DNA of 64,000 bases. Source: a virus. How positions within the stretch are numbered: the first letter of the stretch is position 1; each line of letters begins with the position of its first letter. A program made the translations under genes and the position numbers. Shown here one piece after another: positions 9,477 through 42,171 of the stretch. The stretch covers positions 32,001-96,000 of IMG/VR virus record IMGVR_UViG_3300031414_000009; one strand, given 5' to 3'. The notes below the pieces were generated by a model. It made no database searches. It saw only the letters and a list, made by a program, of their open reading frames with translations, and was not told the origin of the DNA.

Positions 9477-10391
9477 TTAGTTTTCCACCGCAGTTTTGCT
9501 CAGGCGAGCTTGCGCATGGTTGTAAGTATTATCGCGACCGAAGTCAATCACGCGGATGCTGGATTGCGCGATTATCGGGTACATAGTAACGACGATCGCT
9601 ATAAAATAGTACCCGGCTTCAGCGTTATGACGTACTTCAACGGTGTGGGTATAACCGAAGTTTTCATCACGCAGTAAACCCGCATATGCTTCGACTAACT
9701 CTTTACTCTCATGACGTAACGCAACGGCCACACCGTGCCGATGGTGCTTAACCAAGACCGGCATAACGTCAGATGGCACTGCCCAAGACTGAGGTGTCTG
9801 CTCAGCGGTGAGATCAATGTCGCTTTCGTCTTCAATGGGCAGCTCTAAGAAACCCATGAAGTAGAGGCGAAGTTTGTACAGTACGTCGTACAACAACTTA
9901 GTCTTCTCAGGCTTACCCGCTGTAAATGTACAGTGACCCCCCTGGAACCCGATGCAGATGGTCGGTTCCGGCGGTAGACGCTCGCCATTTACCTCCCTTG
10001 GGTTTTCCAACGCTAGGCGATAGCAGCCAGTTAGGTTAAAACCAAATTCGCTCGGTGTACGCACATTCCAGTCGTATTCGCTTGGGGCGTTGACAACCAT
10101 CAACACATACCCGGTCTTAGAGACACGCAGGTTGTTGATGTTGGGGAACTGCATAAACGGTACAAACTGCATCGCGTCGAAATCATTGCTAATGGCGACG
10201 GTTGGCGCTTCGGTGGGTATTGTGGTAAGTTCCTCAACGTGCACGTAGAACTCTACACCCAGGGAGTCTTCCACAGTGACAACACCCGGTTCGTTACCTG
10301 GACCGAGATAAAGTACTGATTTAGTGCAAATGCCACCATCCGGATCGTTCCACAGATACCAGCTATTTCTTACCAGTTCGATCTCTTTCAT
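9477..10391 (-). CDS. hypothetical protein
   Basis: 304-aa ORF, ATGA-coupled. Confidence 0.75.
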   Translation of the reverse strand: MKEIELVRNSWYLWNDPDGGICTKSVLYLGPGNEPGVVTVEDSLGVEFYVHVEELTTIPTEAPTVAISNDFDAMQFVPFMQFPNINNLRVSKTGYVLMVVNAPSEYDWNVRTPSEFGFNLTGCYRLALENPREVNGERLPPEPTICIGFQGGHCTFTAGKPEKTKLLYDVLYKLRLYFMGFLELPIEDESDIDLTAEQTPQSWAVPSDVMPVLVKHHRHGVAVALRHESKELVEAYAGLLRDENFGYTHTVEVRHNAEAGYYFIAIVVTMYPIIAQSSIRVIDFGRDNTYNHAQARLSKTAVEN

Positions 10392-10888
10392 TTCGGTTTC
10401 CTTTGTTTCTTAAAGTTAGAGGCCATGGCCGCCAGCTCTGCAAATGTGAAGATGGCAAACTGATGTTCTTTAGCATCGGTCGCTTTACAGAACAACTTCA
10501 CTGCATCTTCCAGAGTGTCAGTTAAATGTAACGCCGAGAAACCATGTTCCTCAACGGTGAGGTGTTGTGAACGACAACGTAACACGCCCGGTCCGTTTAT
10601 GAGACGAGCTTCAGAAAGGAAGCCGGCTTCCTTGTCGATAAAGTAATCGCGCAGTATGCCGTGTTCGTCCACTACCCCTGTCAACCAACGGCTATCGTGA
10701 TTGATGTTATCTGAAACACCGCCAGCGCGATAGTCCAGGAAGTTGGCAAAGACCGGACTAGTTGGGATCAACACACCAAACTGAGTCACTAAGTTTTGTA
10801 CCGGGATGTGCGTGTACATCGCATTAGGACGAACCTCACCACACACGAAAGCAATGCGGTCGTCTCTGACCATATAAACGTTTGACAT
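10388..10888 (-). CDS. probable inactive HslV/proteasome-beta-like paralog
   Basis: C-terminal SALHLTDTLEDAVKL aligns with SAMLAGKTPKQAVEF of 10890-11411; lacks Thr1, ADxR and GSG. Confidence 0.5.
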   Translation of the reverse strand: MSNVYMVRDDRIAFVCGEVRPNAMYTHIPVQNLVTQFGVLIPTSPVFANFLDYRAGGVSDNINHDSRWLTGVVDEHGILRDYFIDKEAGFLSEARLINGPGVLRCRSQHLTVEEHGFSALHLTDTLEDAVKLFCKATDAKEHQFAIFTFAELAAMASNFKKQRKPK

Positions 10889-10889
10889 C

Positions 10890-11411
10890 TTAACCTGCCT
10901 TAATTGCTTTCAGTTTGTTTGCGTTAATAACGTCTACACCATATCCAGACAGCGCATCGTATCGGTTGGCAAACTCAACAGCTTGCTTAGGCGTTTTACC
11001 GGCGAGCATAGCAGATGATGCAAACGTAGCCCCAGTGCCAACGGTGTAGTAGTCAATAAACTCATCGGACACAGCGATCAGTCCTTCGATGATGCTGATG
11101 AAGAGTTTACGCGTCAGTATCAAGGTAGGCTTTTTCACGCGCTTGTTAATCGCCAACGCCATCTCTGTGAAACCTTCGTCCGTTAACTGACCGCCCCCGC
11201 TAAAGTGATGAGCTACCGCACGAAAGAGCTTTTCCAGATCTTCGGTGTGGTTCTTACTGAGGTCGATCCCCGTAGATCCATATGCGAATGTTCCGCACGG
11301 CGAGAGTTTGATCTTGGGACCATCTGCGAAATGCGTACCGCCATCGTCGCCCTTGATGAGTAATTGGCGATCTGCTGCAATGCATTTAGAGTTAACAACA
11401 ATCGTTGTCAT
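10890..11411 (-). CDS. HslV/proteasome-beta-like Ntn hydrolase
   Basis: M-T-T-I N terminus, IAADRQ, KI, VGTG, AM.AG.TP.QAV..A..YD..SG. Confidence 0.8.
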   Translation of the reverse strand: MTTIVVNSKCIAADRQLLIKGDDGGTHFADGPKIKLSPCGTFAYGSTGIDLSKNHTEDLEKLFRAVAHHFSGGGQLTDEGFTEMALAINKRVKKPTLILTRKLFISIIEGLIAVSDEFIDYYTVGTGATFASSAMLAGKTPKQAVEFANRYDALSGYGVDVINANKLKAIKAG

Positions 11412-11432
11412 TGTTTCGATTCCTTATCCAAC

Positions 11433-11473
11433 AAAATAGAATGAGAGTGGGTTTTCACCCACTCTCTTATGCC
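11433..11473. terminator. hairpin terminator
   Basis: GAGAGTGGGT/ACCCACTCTC stem with TTATGCC on the plus side. Confidence 0.7.
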
Positions 11474-11794
11474 TTAGTAGCCGTTAGACTTCATGTTACG
11501 ATCTGGGCTACCGCGACCGGTACGCTCAGGAGTACGCGCAGTTGCCTTGACCGCAGTGCGACCAATCAGCAGGCCGCCTTCAACCTGAAACGTGATGGAA
11601 TCGCCAACAGACAGACGACTCTCACCATCCAGATACTCGACCTTCACCGGGATCTGGCAATGGTCCTGACCGGAGATAAAGACGCCTTTCTTATTGATGG
11701 AAACCACTTCAGCTTTCGCGGTGGTAACAGAACCAGCTTTGCCTTCTTCAACATCCAGGAGCTGTTTGAATTTGTTATCGATAATCAGTTGCAT
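11474..11794 (-). CDS. cold-shock/OB-fold-like small protein
   Basis: KKGVFIS...LSVGDSITFQVEGG..GRTAVK resembles a CSD but lacks most aromatic RNP residues. Confidence 0.55.
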   Translation of the reverse strand: MQLIIDNKFKQLLDVEEGKAGSVTTAKAEVVSINKKGVFISGQDHCQIPVKVEYLDGESRLSVGDSITFQVEGGLLIGRTAVKATARTPERTGRGSPDRNMKSNGY

Positions 11795-11822
11795 CTTTTC
11801 ATTCCTATTGGTAAATGGAGTC

Positions 11823-14187
<2,365 letters not shown>

Positions 14188-14253
14188 TGCGTTTCCTTAT
14201 ATGGGTTAATCAGAGTATTTCTCGTGCGTGTAATTTACTACGTCATATGCACT

Positions 14254-14277
14254 AGGATAATGTATACTTCAAAGTTT
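14254..14277 (-). promoter_or_regulatory. putative early promoter upstream of the Tad1-like/ligA operon
   Basis: AAACTTTGAAGTATACATTATCCT, variant of the 8-copy motif. Confidence 0.6.
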
Positions 14278-14283
14278 ATTGAA

Positions 14284-14332
14284 CAAAAAAGAAAAGGATA
14301 GAAAAGAGGAGACCCGAAGGTCTCCTCTGTAT
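14284..14332 (-). terminator. hairpin terminator, near-duplicate of 32490-32537
   Basis: AGAGGAGACC-TTCG-GGTCTCCTCT followed by T-rich tail. Confidence 0.8.
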
Positions 14333-14333
14333 G

Positions 14334-14867
14334 TTACGCGTTATCCATAAAGTGGCGTGTGATTTTAGCCATAGCGTTAACAAAATTAGCATCGCTCAGA
14401 TATGTCTCAGTGAAGTCCACCGGTCCGTTTTCCAGATGCACCGCAGACATCACATCAACCTCGAGTTCTTTACAGCGAACTACAACTGTAACTTGCGTCA
14501 GCTTGCCATCGATGCGGTCGAGCATAAGACCACCGATCACGCCATTGTTGGTTTCGAAGTATTCCCAGTGATCTTCGGACATCCATGGTTTGTTGCTGTA
14601 CATGCGGGCCAGGTCGCGACGCAGTTCTTCACGCTGTGCGTCGGTCAGATCCAGTTCACTGTTGTGCGACTGTACATAGATGATGCGATCCAGATGTTCA
14701 ACGTCCAGCTGCTCCAGAGGTTTGGAATCGGTGATTACAGTTTTTGATTTCTCTACGCCAGTGTCAGTGGCACTGACTACAACGTGACCAAGGTTTGCGG
14801 TTGGGAACTCAGGCACGATAGATACGGTGGTGGTGTTGCTCAGAATGAAAGTAGTTAATGCGATCAT
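14334..14867 (-). CDS. hypothetical early protein (monocistronic)
   Basis: 177 aa between an early promoter and a terminator; AAGGA SD. Confidence 0.75.
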   Translation of the reverse strand: MIALTTFILSNTTTVSIVPEFPTANLGHVVVSATDTGVEKSKTVITDSKPLEQLDVEHLDRIIYVQSHNSELDLTDAQREELRRDLARMYSNKPWMSEDHWEYFETNNGVIGGLMLDRIDGKLTQVTVVVRCKELEVDVMSAVHLENGPVDFTETYLSDANFVNAMAKITRHFMDNA

Positions 14868-14922
14868 TGTTTTGCTTCCTTATAAAGAGTAAGTTGAGTG
14901 AACAGTGCTGTTACTATTCACT

Positions 14923-14946
14923 CGAGTACTATATATCTGAAAATTT
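14923..14946 (-). promoter_or_regulatory. putative early promoter
   Basis: AAATTTTCAGATATATAGTACTCG. Confidence 0.65.
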
Positions 14947-14959
14947 GCTGAAACGGTGG

Positions 14960-15451
14960 TTAACGATCGCGCACGCGCATTAACGCATCGCCCAACATAT
15001 TCAGCCCACGCCAACACGTCTGGTCCATATGGTCTGGATGATCGATATCCATACCGATGCCCCAAAGCGTATCTGTGGGAGATGCTTCCACCAAGACACG
15101 TTTACCGGTAGCTTTCAGTTGTGCCATCAACTCGGGATTCTGTTCGAACTTAGCAGACAATACGTCGCACATTGTAGCAAAGCGTTCACCAGCCCATACC
15201 TGGTCATTATAAGGCGAGACCTCACGACCAAGCATCTTGCAGACAAATGGCGCATTGCGTTTGATCGGTTCAACGGCAGCAATCTTGGCAGCGGTTTTGT
15301 AGTCTTTGAAGTGCATGGCTTTCAACCACATAAACGCCTGCTCAGAGCAGAAGAAATCGACGCCTGCCATACTAAAGTTACAGAGGTAGAAGTTGCTGTA
15401 GATATCGTCCCCATAATAGAAGAAGACGAAATCATCAGTTGTCTTTATCAT
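14960..15451 (-). CDS. NADAR (YbiA-like) hydrolase
   Basis: YSNFY, SEQAFMWLKA, LGREV, KFEQN, LVEASPTDTLWGIG, GLNMLGDALMRVR. Confidence 0.93.
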   Translation of the reverse strand: MIKTTDDFVFFYYGDDIYSNFYLCNFSMAGVDFFCSEQAFMWLKAMHFKDYKTAAKIAAVEPIKRNAPFVCKMLGREVSPYNDQVWAGERFATMCDVLSAKFEQNPELMAQLKATGKRVLVEASPTDTLWGIGMDIDHPDHMDQTCWRGLNMLGDALMRVRDR

Positions 15452-15702
15452 ACCGCACCACCGCTCTGCTTGTACACGTCACCATCGCCTGGGACTAGCA
15501 GTGACGGAACGGAGGCAATGGCAGTCCAGTCCACTTCGCGTTTATCTAATTCCATACTACGAATCAGGTCTTTGCATTTGAAAGCAATGCTCTGATATTT
15601 GCGACGCCCTTTTGGGATTACCCGCGTTGGGTTTTTACGGTGGAGTTTCTTCTTCTCCTGACGTGTCATTTTAACGCCCGGCTTTAATTCTGATTTTGCC
15701 AT
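15448..15702 (-). CDS. small basic hypothetical protein
   Basis: 84 aa, K/R-rich, overlaps both neighbours. Confidence 0.6.
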   Translation of the reverse strand: MAKSELKPGVKMTRQEKKKLHRKNPTRVIPKGRRKYQSIAFKCKDLIRSMELDKREVDWTAIASVPSLLVPGDGDVYKQSGGAV

Positions 15703-16196
15703 CTTAACATCCTCTTTAACTTTTCAGAAAAGGTGGGTTGCTCTTTCTCCACAGGTTTGAAGAACTCGAAGAATTCAGCAACCGTGTGGCATGCCTGAGC
15801 AGCGAGTATGCAATTGGTTAAAATAGCGTGCTCATCGCTCTTGAGTGGGTTAAGTCCAGGTAAGTCATACGGATGACGCTTGCCCGCTTCAATGTTCTCA
15901 GGCGTCCATACAGGCGACACCAGAACCCCTGGGTGTTTGTGCCCAGCTACGTCATTGACAAGCCAGGTACCGTCGTAGGTTACGATCAGTGCACGATGTG
16001 TCATACCACCGTAATACTTATCGCCCCGCTCAAGATAACCATCTAACAGTTGGTCGATGTGTTCCTTGAAACAATACACACCCACCATGATAATCTTACT
16101 ACCTGCCCAATAAGCATCCGGTCCGTTTTTGCTATACGCAAAACACAATTGGGTTGCGCTATCCGGCACACCAGACGAAGAAAGCATTACTCTCAT
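15684..16196 (-). CDS. hypothetical protein, possibly a degenerate proteasome-beta-like paralog
   Basis: KIIMVG, ALIVTYDG and ILAAQACHTVAEFFEF fall in the order of the Ntn-fold elements; no catalytic Thr. Confidence 0.45.
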   Translation of the reverse strand: MRVMLSSSGVPDSATQLCFAYSKNGPDAYWAGSKIIMVGVYCFKEHIDQLLDGYLERGDKYYGGMTHRALIVTYDGTWLVNDVAGHKHPGVLVSPVWTPENIEAGKRHPYDLPGLNPLKSDEHAILTNCILAAQACHTVAEFFEFFKPVEKEQPTFSEKLKRMLRWQNQN

Positions 16197-16642
16197 TGTA
16201 AACTCCCATTGAAAACGTATTCCAACTTGCCACGTCTGTATGCGCCCTTAACAACTTCGTTCAGGTCATATCCGTAGCGGTTGACGAAGATACGGCTGTA
16301 GTGACCCAGCAGTTCTTCTGAGACCGTCACTAACGGCTTGTCGCATTCGAGTGCATCCATCGCATGCTCTAATAACCTCAGACCCAAGCCCGTGTTCTGA
16401 CACTGCGGGTTCACACGAACACAGCGCAGTTTGGTTTCCTCTGCTTTTTTGGCCAAAACAAAACCGACCAAGTCCCCGCCAACAAAAGCCCCTATTGCTA
16501 GGTTGCTCTCGTTGGCGGGGTCGGATAGGACTTTGTTGCGATACCAGTTGTCAATGTTCGGGTAATACTGATCGAGGGTTAGCAGTGAAGGGGTGAGGAG
16601 CCGAAGCTCCTCCAATGTTTTAAGTTTTCTTATTTCTACCAT
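16193..16642 (-). CDS. GNAT acetyltransferase
   Basis: YPNIDNWY, LVGF, KLRCVRVNPQCQNTGLG..L acetyl-CoA motif A, YRRGKLEYVFNG. Confidence 0.9.
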   Translation of the reverse strand: MVEIRKLKTLEELRLLTPSLLTLDQYYPNIDNWYRNKVLSDPANESNLAIGAFVGGDLVGFVLAKKAEETKLRCVRVNPQCQNTGLGLRLLEHAMDALECDKPLVTVSEELLGHYSRIFVNRYGYDLNEVVKGAYRRGKLEYVFNGSLQ

Positions 16643-17003
16643 TGTCTAACCAGAATATAAACCTTAACCAAAGCCGACCCCACCAATACTTATTGAGTTT
16701 GGTAAACATCTGGACCGACTCACCCATTTCTTTAAACACTTCCGAGTTGGAGAACACATCCACTTGTCCATATGGAGTGTGTAATGCCACATACCACCCG
16801 TGAGGATCGCCGGGCTTATCCTTGATCTCTTTGAGTTCCCAGTCTGGATAGTTGCGTGCTACTTCATCGTGCATTGCACCTGGGTCATACAGGTAATCAA
16901 TGCGAAGGGAATCCTTAACGTGGTCAGGTACGTTATCGTGCCACCAATCCGGGGCAGCGGGGTTTTCATCCAACCACGCCTTTGCTTTGATTAAACTATC
17001 CAT
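16620..17003 (-). CDS. hypothetical protein
   Basis: 127 aa, AAGGA SD. Confidence 0.7.
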   Translation of the reverse strand: MDSLIKAKAWLDENPAAPDWWHDNVPDHVKDSLRIDYLYDPGAMHDEVARNYPDWELKEIKDKPGDPHGWYVALHTPYGQVDVFSNSEVFKEMGESVQMFTKLNKYWWGRLWLRFIFWLDNGRNKKT

Positions 17004-17012
17004 TCTGGTTCC

Positions 17013-17657
17013 TTAGCATTTAAATGTGTTGTTGTACCACGTACCGACCCTAGCTGCATAGCTAAGCAGGCAACCGTAGAACACGCGAAGCATTGGACGG
17101 CGATATAACTTAGTCATCATCTTCGGTTCTCTGGCATTCGTGTCGTAGATCCTTAAGTACCCACCACACGTATCCGAAAGCGCTAGGGCAGCGCACACGG
17201 TACCGATTTCGTCAGTCTTGAAGAACCGGGTAATGACCTCCACTGGAGCACGCCCAGATCCAATGCATACCAATTCATCTCGCTTGTGATTTTTAACTAT
17301 AAAAGGAGGACCTTCTGTTGAGCGACGGAAATTAACCTCGTAACAATGGTTAGCAGTCAATACCAGCATGACACAATCCAACCCGATAGCCGCCTTTGTA
17401 TTGCGGAGTATTTTGTACGAGTCTAATGCTTCTTTCCCGCCCTTCATCAATATATCGGTTGCTATGGTAATAGCCTCAGAAGCCCCGGCACCAGCAACCG
17501 CCAAAATGACTTCCTTGTCCCAAACCGCAAGTTTGTTTTCTAACTTGTAACTGGGATATGATGTTATCTTCACGATGTTCTCGTGTTGAGAAACCCCACG
17601 AGATACTGTTCGGGAGTCGGCATAGAAAACACCACCACGTTGAACAATGACCGTCAT
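17013..17657 (-). CDS. HslV/proteasome-beta-like Ntn hydrolase
   Basis: M-T-V-I N terminus, YADSR, VKI, AVAGAG, CIGSG, SDTCGG. Confidence 0.75.
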   Translation of the reverse strand: MTVIVQRGGVFYADSRTVSRGVSQHENIVKITSYPSYKLENKLAVWDKEVILAVAGAGASEAITIATDILMKGGKEALDSYKILRNTKAAIGLDCVMLVLTANHCYEVNFRRSTEGPPFIVKNHKRDELVCIGSGRAPVEVITRFFKTDEIGTVCAALALSDTCGGYLRIYDTNAREPKMMTKLYRRPMLRVFYGCLLSYAARVGTWYNNTFKC

Positions 17658-17659
17658 CG

Positions 17660-17992
17660 CTACTCCTTAATTAACACCAGAACCTCGCCATCCATATCTG
17701 CCAGTCCTGCGGCATACAGCAACGCATCTTCCACCTCCAGACCGTTAGACTCGCCTTCCAGCAACAACTCAATGGTGCGTCGGGCTAACCAGCTAGGTAG
17801 AGTATATGTGGTGTTGCCTTTGAGCAGGGCTATGGCATTCACTTTGTCATATGGGTCTTCAAAGTGAACCATGAACGAGTGTGACGGTGTGGTGTACTTC
17901 CGGTCCACAACACGAGTGGCTTTATACAACAATGCCGTGTCCCAAACCGTAAACTGGCGCTTAGTTACTTGGATTGGATTTGCGTTGTTCAT
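17660..17992 (-). CDS. shortened inactive proteasome-beta-like paralog
   Basis: IQV....WDTALLYK...RK aligns with IVV....ADRQLLIK...PK of 10890-11411; C-terminal GLEVEDALLYAAGLADMDG. Confidence 0.5.
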   Translation of the reverse strand: MNNANPIQVTKRQFTVWDTALLYKATRVVDRKYTTPSHSFMVHFEDPYDKVNAIALLKGNTTYTLPSWLARRTIELLLEGESNGLEVEDALLYAAGLADMDGEVLVLIKE

Positions 17993-18270
17993 AAGACCCC
18001 CGGATGTGGATTTGTGATAACCCATTGTTTACAGCGTTCCATGACAGCTTCCACGTCATCGCGATCCACGCCAGCATCCAACAGACCGGTTTCGATGTCC
18101 GGTAAGGTTTGGAAATCCCAACGACCGTCCAGTCGAGCTGCCGTAATAAAGTCTATCCAGTCTATTCGCAATTTTCTTTTTACGATGATCTCGTTTAAAG
18201 AAACATCAAGCGGTAGACCGTGGGTCGCCTTGAGTTGAAACAGTTTGTCGCCCGGAAATAAATTAGACAT
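17989..18270 (-). CDS. stand-alone alanyl-tRNA synthetase helical module
   Basis: PGDKLFQLKATHGLPLDV...KRKLRIDWIDF vs AlaRS DGETAFRLYDTYGFPVDL...ERNIKVDEAGF. Confidence 0.7.
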   Translation of the reverse strand: MSNLFPGDKLFQLKATHGLPLDVSLNEIIVKRKLRIDWIDFITAARLDGRWDFQTLPDIETGLLDAGVDRDDVEAVMERCKQWVITNPHPGVL

Positions 18271-31943: not shown

Positions 31944-32476
31944 AGTGCCTCCCGTTCTTTCAGGTATTCGGTGATACGTTTAGCAATGCTCAGTTGAAGT
32001 ACCCGTAATGCTTCACGCTTTTTGTCTGCACTGACTTTCGAATTAGACATTACCTGTTGCATCACTAAGAAAGGTGCGCCGGGTATGCCACTGGTTGCTA
32101 CGCTAACGTAATGCGGGTTCGAGAAACGTTCCGGATGTACAAGCTTTTCAATTTCATCTGCTGTACCGGATGCAGATAATTCATTGTTTTTGTAAAAATC
32201 TACCGCACGCGATAACACCCGACGCGGTTCGTACGATGCCAGATCAACACCACCGCCGTATTGCGTAAAACCGCACGTCTCGATGACATGGAGTTCTTTA
32301 TTAAGATTCTGTGCGTATTCAACCACACGGTCGATGCTTTTGCGGCGTTCGCGTTTGATGTACCACGCAGTTTGTTTGATAAGGCGACGAAGCTCACCCA
32401 GGCACATAACAAAAACAAAGAGTGCGTTAAACGCAATCAGTAAAACGGTGAGTTTAAGCAGTGTAAATAAGTCCAT
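31940..32476 (-). CDS. membrane-anchored hypothetical protein
   Basis: N-terminal TM, AAGGA SD. Confidence 0.7.
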   Translation of the reverse strand: MDLFTLLKLTVLLIAFNALFVFVMCLGELRRLIKQTAWYIKRERRKSIDRVVEYAQNLNKELHVIETCGFTQYGGGVDLASYEPRRVLSRAVDFYKNNELSASGTADEIEKLVHPERFSNPHYVSVATSGIPGAPFLVMQQVMSNSKVSADKKREALRVLQLSIAKRITEYLKEREAL

Positions 32477-32489
32477 TGGAAGTCCTTAA

Positions 32490-32537
32490 CAAAAAAGATA
32501 AATAGAAAAGAGGAGACCGAAATGGTCTCCTCTCTAT
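32490..32537 (-). terminator. hairpin terminator, near-duplicate of 14284-14332
   Basis: AGAGGAGACC/GGTCTCCTCT stem with the same flanks. Confidence 0.8.
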
Positions 32538-32541
32538 GACG

Positions 32542-32976
32542 TCAATCGAAATAGCCGACCCAGATGTTTCTGCTAGCAAACCCGCTCTTGAAGTCTGCCG
32601 TCTTATGCTCAGAATCGACCATGTATCGCAATAGCTTTTCATCTAATGCGAATGCTCTATTCTTGAACTCTTCAGACACATTCATATCGCGAGTCGCAAC
32701 CCAGATACCGTAGTGAACCGGCCAGTATCCGTGATTAGCGATAATATCATCCGGGCTAAGCTCTAACCACTCGGTGTGAGTATTACCACAGAACTTACGA
32801 AACTCTTCAAGAGTCTCATAGGACTTGCCACCCCGCATGCAGCCCGGGAATTCACCAGCAGCAAAGTATCCGTTTTTATACAGTACATACCCACCGCACT
32901 GCACAAAGCCAGAGTTCGTGCTGATAATCTCAAATGCACGCTCTATGGAAACTGGCGTACCAGCGCTAATTTGCAT
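32542..32976 (-). CDS. hypothetical protein
   Basis: 144 aa, overlaps upstream stop. Confidence 0.7.
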   Translation of the reverse strand: MQISAGTPVSIERAFEIISTNSGFVQCGGYVLYKNGYFAAGEFPGCMRGGKSYETLEEFRKFCGNTHTEWLELSPDDIIANHGYWPVHYGIWVATRDMNVSEEFKNRAFALDEKLLRYMVDSEHKTADFKSGFASRNIWVGYFD

Positions 32977-33570: not shown

Positions 33571-34914
33571 TCACGCAACAAGTTGAATGCGAAGTGTACC
33601 TTCTTTGTAGAGAGCATCCACAAAGCCCTGTACGCTATCGCTATTGGTTTTAAAGGTTTTCTGCACCGTTGCACCGGGCAGCGGATTGAAGATGTCTGGT
33701 GCGTTGTATGCTTCGCCTGGGAACATCAGCTCGATATACCGACGCAGTTCGGCGTCTTCCAGATAACCGATGTAGACACGAGCATCAACACGCTCATCGC
33801 GAATCAATGCCTCATCTAATTTCTCAGGATGGTTGGTAGTCATGATGACAATAACATCATCAAGGCCGAGAACACCGTCCAGACCATTTAACATGTCAGA
33901 AAGATTACCGGTCAGATATTCGTCCACAGCGTCACGAGATTCCCCATTCGCTGGAGCTTCTGGCAGCTGCTCACCGTCCCGTTCTTTCTTGATCTTCTTG
34001 ACTACCCCAAACTCTGGGTCAGTCTCAGCGTTGTCACGACGCCGTGATACTGAGTAGGTGTCGATATCTTCCATCAACACAACACCACCCTTGGCGCTCT
34101 GGAACAGTGAGTTGTATGACAAACTGCCGTCTGGGCGTAGGATATGCACAGATCGATTTAGCATCGACGCAATAGCTGCCGCCAGTGAGCTTTTACCCGT
34201 ACCCGGTGGTCCGTACAGTAGTACCGTGAACTTATAGTTAAAGCCACGCTTGACATACCACTCACGATTGGTCTGGAATTTACGTAGGGGTTCGATAAGC
34301 TCTTTCTGAACCTTATCGCTCACAATGACTGTTTCGGGAGAACGTTTGTTCATCCGACTAATCCAGTTCCAATCAGACTTAGCACTTTCAAACACCGTAA
34401 CCTGATTATCGCTGTCGTCCTTTTCCATGAACGCATCCATGAGACGATAAAGTGGTTCCTTGCTTCGACCTAGCGTCGATATGCTAACACGGTACTTAGA
34501 CTGGTTAGACTGATTGGCTTGGTCTTCTGCGATGGTGAAGAAATAGAACCGACGCTGGTAGATGAAGAAGTGTGTTCCCACGCCTGGACCAACCGACCCT
34601 TTGCCTCCATTACCATCCAGTGTAATGACGCGACTCCAGTTGAACCAGGAGTTCTTAGCAAACCACGCTAAGAAGGCAATGTACTGACGACTGTTGTATT
34701 CGGACCAGTTTGTAGACGCAGTAGAGAAACTCAACTTAGTCATGCACTGTGTACGAACAAAATGCATCACCCGGTTGGGTAGTTTCCACAGGATGAAACC
34801 GATGCCTCCTGTGAATACCAGGGAGCTGGTCGTTACAATCGCTGCCTGTGCCGCTGGCCATGGTTTGGCATAGTCCAGCAGCAGCTGATAAACCGCAAGC
34901 AAATGTTCAATCAT
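33571..34914 (-). CDS. BCS1-like membrane-anchored AAA+ ATPase
   Basis: N-terminal TM, BCS1_N-like PGVGTHFFIY and ISTLGRSK, EWYVKRG, YGPPGTGKSS, LMEDID, LNGLDGV, MTTNHPEKLDEALIR..RVD. Confidence 0.88.
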   Translation of the reverse strand: MIEHLLAVYQLLLDYAKPWPAAQAAIVTTSSLVFTGGIGFILWKLPNRVMHFVRTQCMTKLSFSTASTNWSEYNSRQYIAFLAWFAKNSWFNWSRVITLDGNGGKGSVGPGVGTHFFIYQRRFYFFTIAEDQANQSNQSKYRVSISTLGRSKEPLYRLMDAFMEKDDSDNQVTVFESAKSDWNWISRMNKRSPETVIVSDKVQKELIEPLRKFQTNREWYVKRGFNYKFTVLLYGPPGTGKSSLAAAIASMLNRSVHILRPDGSLSYNSLFQSAKGGVVLMEDIDTYSVSRRRDNAETDPEFGVVKKIKKERDGEQLPEAPANGESRDAVDEYLTGNLSDMLNGLDGVLGLDDVIVIMTTNHPEKLDEALIRDERVDARVYIGYLEDAELRRYIELMFPGEAYNAPDIFNPLPGATVQKTFKTNSDSVQGFVDALYKEGTLRIQLVA

Positions 34915-41724: not shown

Positions 41725-42171
41725 TTAGTGGACCAGTTTCAGTGAAGGTTTAGCTTTAACCGGCACGTCCTCTTTAGACTGGCCGTTACCGAAGTTTTCA
41801 AACCAGGACTTAGCCGAAGCGTAGTCGCAGATAGGCTGACCGATACCGGTTTCACGACCATACATCGCAGCGATTTGTTGATAGGCCAGAACGATGCTGT
41901 GCTCTTTCCCACCGAAGCGACAATTGAAGGTAATGAACTCAGGTCCAAAATTAAGGTTACCTGTGGCAGTCGAGGACACGTTAAGAACAATCGTCGGTAG
42001 CCCGCCTTCTGCTGGTGCGGGGATGGTAAAACCTAACAACATCGGGTCGGTTACGACGTCAGCGTACAGCTGAACAAAGGGCGTGTCGAATTCGCTGATC
42101 CAGCGGTGCGAAGCTTCTGCAAAGTACGGCAGGAAGTTCGGAACAACGATTTCTTTCTGATTCTGGCTCAT
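41725..42171 (-). CDS. sspB: ClpXP adaptor SspB
   Basis: IVLNVSSTATGNL, FNCRFGG, AMYGRETGIG, C-terminal XB-like PSLKLVH. Confidence 0.9.
   Translation of the reverse strand: MSQNQKEIVVPNFLPYFAEASHRWISEFDTPFVQLYADVVTDPMLLGFTIPAPAEGGLPTIVLNVSSTATGNLNFGPEFITFNCRFGGKEHSIVLAYQQIAAMYGRETGIGQPICDYASAKSWFENFGNGQSKEDVPVKAKPSLKLVH

Follow-up and report, generated by a model that had tools for sequence, protein, structure and literature searches.

Bacterial HslV (ClpQ) is a homo-dodecamer that is driven by the AAA+ unfoldase HslU, and in the 20S proteasome inactive alpha or beta subunits are combined with active beta subunits. Peptidases of the HslV family are also widely annotated in phages, and to our knowledge none of them has a known substrate, partner or role. 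Here we describe a conserved three-gene module of a jumbo phage, consisting of a small tail-bearing gene, a divergent HslV-like gene named gB, and the gene gA, of which the product is predicted to be a catalytically dead protein with the N-terminal nucleophile (Ntn) hydrolase fold. The module is located on a stretch of 64,000 nucleotides (hereafter the window) that corresponds to bases 74691-138690 of the 142-kb IMG/VR virus record IMGVR_UViG_3300031414_000009. The window, which is even in base composition, is part of a jumbo phage genome, and the record is estimated to be about half complete (CheckV completeness ~52%).

Proteasome homologues carried by phages have been catalogued by Fuchs, Alva and Lupas (2021, PMC8665760) as PPH ('the first true viral member'), AAH and CPH, together with RPC, a relative of PPH with a C-terminal extension. 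PPH and RPC lack helix H2, and PPH, AAH, CPH and RPC are each presented there as a lone gene to which no function is assigned. The live-looking copies of the present phage, namely gB, gD and a third copy encoded outside the window, resemble PPH, AAH and the members of PHROG 1040 in being propeptide-less, compact and HslV-like, in carrying Thr/Ser1, Asp17, Lys33 and an oxyanion Gly, and in belonging to tailed phages. In contrast to PPH and AAH, as far as these are presented in the accessible part of the catalogue, the phage described here has three paralogues at once, one of which is accompanied by a putatively dead Ntn partner and by a small tail protein encoded upstream. Furthermore, the C-terminal extension of gD is, by description, reminiscent of the RPC class.

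The locus also compares in different ways with the two cellular systems. With bacterial HslV it shares the catalytic residues and a similar size, and HslV provides the best solved-structure match for both the gB profile and the gA model. Unlike bacterial HslV, the phage has no HslU-type ATPase that could be found in the record, its HslV-like proteins do not reach the Pfam family PF00227, and the live gB is linked genetically to a seemingly dead paralogue. The likeness to the 20S proteasome lies in the combination of live and dead Ntn-fold paralogues and in the alpha and beta subunits that head the Foldseek matches of gA. The differences are that gA is without the alpha-type N-terminal gating helix, and that the phage pair would have evolved separately inside phage HslV-like lineages. 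One phage protein of this kind, the 'HslVU family' protein gp116 of Erwinia phage RAY, was localised to the phage nucleus (Prichard et al., bioRxiv 10.1101/2023.02.24.529968). We considered gp116 as a homologue of gB and rejected it as probably a different gene, the gB-like gene of RAY being located at 49.6 kb, as is gp58 of phage Special G. The literature search turned up no account of a dead partner or of this module. Phage HslV-like peptidases as such are known, while a partner of this kind and the module of three genes seem not to have been described.

Live HslV-like peptidases of the phage

An earlier interpretation of the window, made from the letters alone (the sequence-only reading), had proposed up to five HslV-like paralogues arranged as active/inactive pairs of a heteromeric proteasome-like complex. 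The genes concerned are all on the minus strand: gA (10388-10888; 166 aa), gB (10890-11411; 173 aa), gC (15684-16196; 170 aa), gD (17013-17657; 214 aa) and gE (17660-17992; 110 aa). gA starts 1 nt after gB, in a position suited to coupled translation, and gE is located ahead of gD with a gap of 2 nt. While the reading frames and coordinates of these five genes proved to be as proposed, a third live paralogue and a conserved small upstream gene with a hairpin had been missed.

The product of gB is best described as an Ntn peptidase that is HslV-like, though divergent, and has kept its catalytic set intact. In searches with PHROG 1040, 'peptidase HslV family', matches were obtained for gB (E 1.7e-15), gD (E 3.9e-6) and the third copy (E 4.1e-30), and none for gA, gC or gE. 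The motifs of gB read MTTIVV..AADRQ..GPKIK..VGTGA, and its catalytic set comprises Thr2, Asp14, Lys33, Gly48, G125-T-G127 and D152xxS155, all of them in columns that are invariant in the relatives. A gB family profile was built from metagenomic relatives (54-86% identity), homologues from Erwinia phages and phAPEC8. When this profile was compared with the PDB, the ten best matches were all HslV (E 7e-4 to 0.3). Searching the PDB sequences by phmmer with the single gB and gD sequences, on the other hand, gave no match to HslV, and Pfam scans of the five proposed paralogues returned no useful match.

gD encodes a second and more divergent HslV-like Ntn peptidase, as judged from its match to PHROG 1040 and its alignment to the gB family. 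With the gB profile it aligned by hhalign over its full length (153 columns, P 0.0034), with MT-IV, ADxR, K, GxG and GSG in register. Its motifs are MTVIVQ..YADSR..GSG..CGG, and the residues invariant in its relatives are T2, D14, K30/K42, G56/G58 and G133-S-G135, so that either K42 or K30, both invariant, would be the catalytic Lys. HslV also came first when the gD family profile was compared with the PDB, but with an E-value of 0.68 only, and a tblastn search with gD against phage records gave no match. The last ~40 codons of gD (17013-17130) specify a conserved aromatic/basic extension (..Y..P.LRV..G....GTW.N..F..).

The third copy emerged from a search of the 716 open reading frames (ORFs) of the phage, in which the gB and gD profiles both found the same ORF (E 9e-12 and 0.004, respectively). 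This ORF is also the best non-self match of the gD profile in the genome. It is located on the minus strand at genome positions 32185-32673, encodes 162 aa, and is the most canonical of the three (MTTIAWDG..AADSR..K..GSG), with, by eye, a single helix between two sheet halves. It is of the type annotated as 'peptidase HslV family' in SPN3US-, Huxley- and phiEaH2-like jumbo phages. At its start this copy (L003:1468-1956) shares 4 nt with an ORF of 173 aa that belongs to no known family.

All three proteins begin with M-T-T/V, which is invariant in their relatives except for the PhiEaH1, Special G and L012 lineages, where Ser is found instead. In a joint alignment with E. coli HslV, Met1, Thr/Ser2, Asp17, Lys33, the oxyanion Gly, the GxG loop and a C-terminal Gly were invariant or nearly so. 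Since the live copies are without a propeptide, removal of Met alone would expose the nucleophile. Together, the sequence comparisons confirm gB, gD and the third copy as HslV/proteasome-beta-like Ntn peptidases, and the phage has at least three paralogues that look live. The earlier claim that gB and gD keep the Thr1/Asp/Lys set was thereby borne out. Within the window, gD appears by sequence to be a separate, more divergent live paralogue that stands alone.

A putative dead Ntn-fold partner

gA belongs to phrog_8172, which is annotated as 'unknown function'. BLASTP detected no similarity between gA and gB, and a gA profile gave only noise against the PDB sequences. An exhaustive profile search, however, recovered 34 clusters of gA homologues, all of them 157-212 aa in length and aligned from residue 1. 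An AlphaFold2 model built on the family alignment reached a predicted local distance difference test score (pLDDT) of 92.8 and a predicted template modelling score (pTM) of 0.88. When this model was compared with the PDB by Foldseek, 20S proteasome subunits of both the alpha and the beta type made up all 40 entries among the matches listed (ranks 1-50). The scores were weak, with E-values of 2e-3 to 1e-2 and template modelling (TM) scores of 0.3-0.4.

The model was also submitted to VIA, a structure search that is independent of Foldseek and covers 48,161 chains. Here the top 42 rows all had the Ntn fold, with Z-scores from 6.6 to 3.6, and included proteasome beta subunits, HslV, BPH, Anbu, connectase, penicillin V acylase, acid ceramidase, NAAA and cephalosporin acylases. 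In the best rows 131-137 of the 166 residues were aligned, and in most rows model residues 1-3 fell on target residue 1. For instance, Thermotoga maritima HslV, with the top Z-score of 6.6, was aligned over 131 residues with a root-mean-square deviation of 4.4, model residue 3 being placed on target residue 1. We assign the Ntn fold to gA because the match list is exclusively Ntn and because the coverage is full-length. Among the predicted viral structures of BFVD, the gA model matched uncharacterised proteins of the Erwinia phages PhiEaH1 and Bosolaphorus and the Ralstonia phages RSF1 and RP12 (E 3e-14 to 1e-6). Among the lower matches (E ~1e-2 to 1e-3) were entries under the names 'Proteasome subunit beta' or 'HslV', as well as the live partner from phage Special G.

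The family alignment of gA shows that the catalytic residues are not retained. In the column equivalent to Thr1, 24 of the 39 sequences have Asn, 4 have Ser and 11 have other residues, and the N-termini vary in both length and residue. No conserved nucleophile was found in the family, and the positions of Asp17 and Lys33 are not conserved either. Other columns are strongly conserved instead, namely P42 (39/39), G38 (38/39), E113 (36/39), G77 (34/39), and D52, R95 and G99 (33/39 each), and gA has a conserved surface of its own made up of N22, G38, P42, D52, R95, G99, G101, R106 and E113. On the strength of the model, we conclude that gA is an Ntn-fold protein that is catalytically dead. With respect to the proposal that the presumed inactive proteins adopt the Ntn fold, both structure searches thus spoke for gA, while gC, as described below, gave only weak and mixed matches.

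Conservation of the gB/gA pair

The linkage of the two genes was examined in 13 loci, comprising five syntenic metagenomic relatives (L004-L008), the four Erwinia phages pEa_SNUABM_54, PhiEaH1, Special G and AH06, and four distant metagenomic contigs, one of which is 246 kb in length and another of which carries a gene of the phiKZ gp29 type. In all 13 a gA-like gene was found directly 3′ of the HslV-like gene, down to ~20% identity and usually with an overlap of 4-11 nt. The same layout was observed in one more contig. By label, the loci carrying the pair are the window, L001, L004-L008, L010-L013, L015, L017 and L018. The genes upstream of the gA homologues matched PHROG 1040 or, where this match was weak, contained the catalytic motif. 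In the annotation of AH06 the HslV-like copy is a 'proteasome-like hydrolase', and its gA-like partner is hypothetical.

Among cultured phages, the nearest one in which the key genes occur is Erwinia phage pEa_SNUABM_54 (272 kb), with a protein identity of 31-34%; a megablast search of the region against phage records gave no match at the DNA level. From these data we conclude that gB and gA are one live/dead pair that is inherited as a unit. The earlier claim of active/inactive pairs therefore holds for gB and gA, given the Ntn fold of gA and the 13 of 13 loci, and is not supported for gD and gE, between which no significant profile relation was detected.

The small gene and hairpin upstream of gB

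The first gene of the module (11474-11794, minus strand) encodes a small beta-rich protein of 106 aa with a C-terminal tail rich in Gly, Ser and basic residues, for which neither a Pfam nor a PHROG family was found. Its place in the module was established by synteny and hhalign. In 12 of the 13 loci, the HslV-like gene is immediately preceded by a gene for a beta-rich protein of 91-114 aa; the contig of the 13th is not long enough to show it. Two sequence groups of the small protein were joined by hhalign (probability 71%, E 3.7e-5, 65 columns). Examples of the tails are ..RTGRGSPDRNMKSNGY and ..KKTQGSGSTQAKQQRC; beyond a loose G-[ST]-G/S, nothing is conserved in them. We also considered a ~100-aa gene followed by an HslV-like gene as a repeated unit, which would have included gE and gD. 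This idea was rejected, as the comparison of gE with the small upstream protein family showed no relation. Together these findings define a conserved three-gene module of the small tail-bearing gene, gB and gA.

Between the small gene and gB, a terminator scan and folding revealed a GC-rich hairpin (11443-11466, minus strand) with a 10-bp stem, a GAAA loop and a U-rich tail, for which a free energy of -22.3 kcal/mol and a z-score of -3.6 were calculated. A strong GC-rich hairpin was present in this gap in 11 of the 11 loci that were folded (the window, L001, L004-L007, L010-L012, L017 and L018), with z-scores of -2.2 to -5.2 in nine of them. The hairpin sequences are unrelated, and UUAUG[C/A]C is often found 3′ of the hairpin. 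The element is likely a phage terminator or attenuator. Accordingly, it may simply end the upstream transcript, or it may act as an attenuator that sets a high ratio of the small protein to the enzymes.

Conceivably, such an arrangement could point to another kind of enzyme altogether. The live subunits could be sequence-specific processing or ligating enzymes like connectase, for which the small tail protein would serve as the substrate or tag. The order of the elements, a flexible Gly/Ser-rich tail followed by the hairpin, would fit this idea, in that the small protein would be made in excess over the enzyme pair. Moreover, neither the neighbourhood nor the rest of the record was found to encode an unfoldase, the structure search with gA also brought up connectase (Z 5.5-5.7), and Fuchs et al. 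(2021, PMC8665760) point out that a homologue of the proteasome is not necessarily a protease. However, neither the end of the tail nor any motif in it is conserved beyond the loose pattern given above. Hairpins similar to the one described here were, moreover, found at many gene boundaries in this DNA, and the one upstream of gB may just end the upstream transcript. We regard the processing or ligating reading as rather unlikely. Taken one step further, the whole module could be a self-contained protein-processing or tagging system that is free of an ATPase, in which the excess small protein is the substrate or tag and is presented by the dead gA to the live gB, which might ligate or trim it. 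This we consider a long shot.

Predicted assembly of gB and gA

The reading that we favour is a three-gene module in which gB is live, gA is dead, and the two co-assemble; on balance we hold it to be probable, with considerable room for doubt. gA would then be a duplicated and highly diverged Ntn-fold protein that has lost the nucleophile and the Asp/Lys pair. gB and gA would co-assemble, most likely as mixed or stacked rings, in which the Thr1 active sites, and with them the presumed peptidase activity, would come from gB, plain removal of Met being enough to expose the sites. gA, for its part, would be a structural, gating or substrate-selecting subunit, similar to the inactive subunits of 20S proteasomes.

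A structure prediction of the gB + gA complex yielded an interface score (ipSAE) of 0.53 in three runs, whereas the best of 3 controls scored 0.00. The contacts agreed between the runs, and the pLDDT of the partners was at least 85. In the calibration of the tool, 58 of 80 solved complexes attained the mark, as did 2 of 110 mismatched pairs; scores of 0.60 or lower accounted for 7 of the 80 solved complexes and for both mismatches. That the two proteins co-assemble is suggested mainly by the gene linkage and by the full-size, subunit-like fold of gA, from which we consider it somewhat better than an even bet.

Several observations weigh against the favoured reading. The hhalign match between gA and gB was limited to 41-43 columns at the C-terminal helices and, with P-values of 0.002-0.04, was not significant. 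The aligned stretch, SALHLTDTLEDAVKL in gA versus SAMLAGKTPKQAVEF in gB, is nevertheless exactly the motif likeness to which the sequence-only reading had drawn attention, and it is backed by the fold of gA. The top VIA Z-score of 6.6 is middling on the scale of that tool. On the side of the live copies, none of the three HslV-like proteins reaches the curated cut-off of PF00227 (Proteasome), a search of the whole record with this family gave 0 matches at E <= 10, and the folds of gB and gD rest on profiles and not on models. The complex score carries the tool's rating 'weak support', and passing the mark may reflect a memory of, or a likeness to, solved proteasome rings. The hairpin could also place the small gene on a separate transcript. 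Lastly, the conserved polar set of gA (D52, R95, R106 and E113/E114) might just as well mark a ligand site or a novel active site as an interface.

The last of these points leads to a different view of gA, in which it has the Ntn fold and yet acts outside a gB ring, be it as an inhibitor, as an assembly chaperone for gB, or as an enzyme or binder in its own right by way of its Asp, Arg and Glu residues. The adjacency of the two genes would then reflect a shared pathway only. This view would account for a conserved polar cluster that is unrelated to the Ntn catalytic set, and it is in line with the weak complex score and the extreme sequence divergence of gA and gB. It sits less well with the tight and usually overlapping pairing of the genes, which is kept to ~20% identity in all loci examined, with the ring-subunit size and full-length fold of gA, and with the score of 0.00 of all complex controls. 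We judge a role outside the ring to be unlikely, albeit by no means negligible, and retain co-assembly of gB and gA as the favoured reading. As for the heteromeric proteasome-like complex that had been proposed for all five genes, gB and gA would thus fit such a complex, by an assembly deduced from linkage and fold and with a weak complex prediction, and a second pair of gD and gE in it, or gC as a further dead copy, is not supported.

The gE and gC genes

In the reading with five paralogues, two live/dead pairs (gB/gA and gD/gE) and a dead gC would make up one heteromeric protease. We therefore examined gE and gC for any relation to the Ntn fold. gE (17660-17992, minus strand), as placed by synteny in L004-L008, is positioned ahead of gD for coupled translation, and it is co-conserved with gD, which would suit a pair; this co-conservation is found in close relatives only. 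The start of gE overlaps the stop of the preceding gene, and since the syntenic relatives are 96-104 aa in length, as opposed to the 110 aa of gE, an internal start is favoured. The only invariant residue of the gE family is W17. The likeness that had been seen between IQV..DTALLYK in gE and IVV..DRQLLIK in gB did not withstand comparison with the relatives, in which the Asp concerned is replaced by Q, S or R or is absent, and it found no support from profiles. Indeed, the hhalign comparisons of gE with four HslV-like profiles were non-significant (P 0.03-0.6) and disagreed in register, and those with the profiles of gA and the small upstream protein were non-significant as well. We conclude that gE may well be a partner of gD. 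Judged by its sequence, its Ntn paralogy is unsupported, and with 110 aa it would be too short for a whole Ntn domain.

gC (15684-16196, minus strand) belongs to the same gene run as gD and has homologues in the syntenic relatives and in pEa_SNUABM_54. Its length is right for an Ntn subunit, and its model, an alpha/beta sandwich of moderate quality (pLDDT 75.4), has a suitable order of secondary structure elements (beta-beta-beta-alpha-beta-beta-beta-alpha-alpha). When this model was searched by Foldseek, the top five matches were HslV chains, but weak ones (E 0.24-0.5, TM ~0.26). VIA, on the other hand, returned no Z-score of 5 or higher; PP2C phosphatases, which are four-layer sandwiches too, led with 4.2 ahead of HslV with 3.0, and the alignment did not start from residue 1. 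The hhalign comparisons of gC with the profiles of gB, gD and gA and with a combined HslV profile, which was also used for gE, were all non-significant. All three weak hhalign matches of gE and gC fell on one and the same helix-Gly-strand segment of the HslV profile, and we discarded them as a generic attractor. Furthermore, BLASTP among all proposed paralogues gave no match. With no sequence relation seen and structural matches that are weak and mixed, the data lean against gC as a third dead copy; we consider an Ntn origin of gC doubtful. As most phages with the gB/gA pair lack the genes for gD, gE and gC, a single protease of five paralogues appears very improbable. What stands of the five proposed paralogues in the window are the two live copies gB and gD and the dead gA.

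Gene context and AAA proteins

No match to an ATPase of the HslU/Clp type (AAA_2, PF07724) was detected in the 142-kb record, of which the completeness has to be kept in mind (~52%). This agrees with, and extends beyond the window, the earlier statement that HslU is missing. Conceivably, HslU of the host could serve instead. The SspB homologue and the AAA+ ATPase that had been brought forward as potential partners are both present in the window, the AAA protein (PF00004) at ~33763-34224 and the SspB homologue at ~41836-41994. They are, however, separated from the HslV-like genes by 22-30 kb, and nothing was found that links either of them to the HslV-like loci. In two distant contigs with the module, genes of these kinds are closer by: in one of them a gene that is SspB-like by a weak Pfam match (L017:1148-1546) precedes the module by two genes, and in the other a gene with a weak match to the AAA family (L012:4542-5708) follows the module by two genes. 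These are possible accessory partners, the association of which is not conserved here.

Between 8 and 21 kb of the window, nearly all genes are on the minus strand and tightly packed. Directly upstream of the module in this clade is a gene for a full-length NAD-dependent DNA ligase (11823-13838, minus strand), with a domain set of the LigA type according to the Pfam matches of its relatives. On the other side, a gene for a 304-aa protein (9477-10391, minus strand) begins with a 4-nt overlap onto the stop of gA. This gene matched no family of Pfam or PHROG, and it was rejected as a member of the module, as it adjoins gA in close relatives only.

gE, gD and gC belong to one unbroken gene run (18270-14334) that also holds genes for a GNAT acetyltransferase and a NADAR domain protein. 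The former (16193-16642, minus strand; PF00583, E 3e-7; phrog_13728, E 1e-37) overlaps the start of gC with its stop. In L005-L008, the syntenic relatives that are more distant, it is missing from this place, and a different gene of 171 aa is present nearby. The gene for the NADAR domain protein (14960-15451, minus strand; PF08719, E 1e-38) is the second-to-last of the run. Ahead of gE, a gene for a 93-aa protein (17989-18270, minus strand) overlaps the gE start with its stop; its product weakly matched one segment of the family of class II alanyl-tRNA synthetases (PF01411), with an E-value of 6e-4 that misses the cut-off.

Significance

For the HslV-like peptidases of phages, the dead partner and the small tail protein represent a first concrete handle, as the three proteins can be co-expressed and examined as a set. 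Should gB and gA indeed co-assemble, the design of the proteasome with its live and dead subunits would have arisen independently inside viruses. In that case, a fold and a likely role would also be provided for PHROG 8172, the 34 clusters of which comprise hypothetical proteins from jumbo phages of Erwinia, Ralstonia and uncultured hosts.

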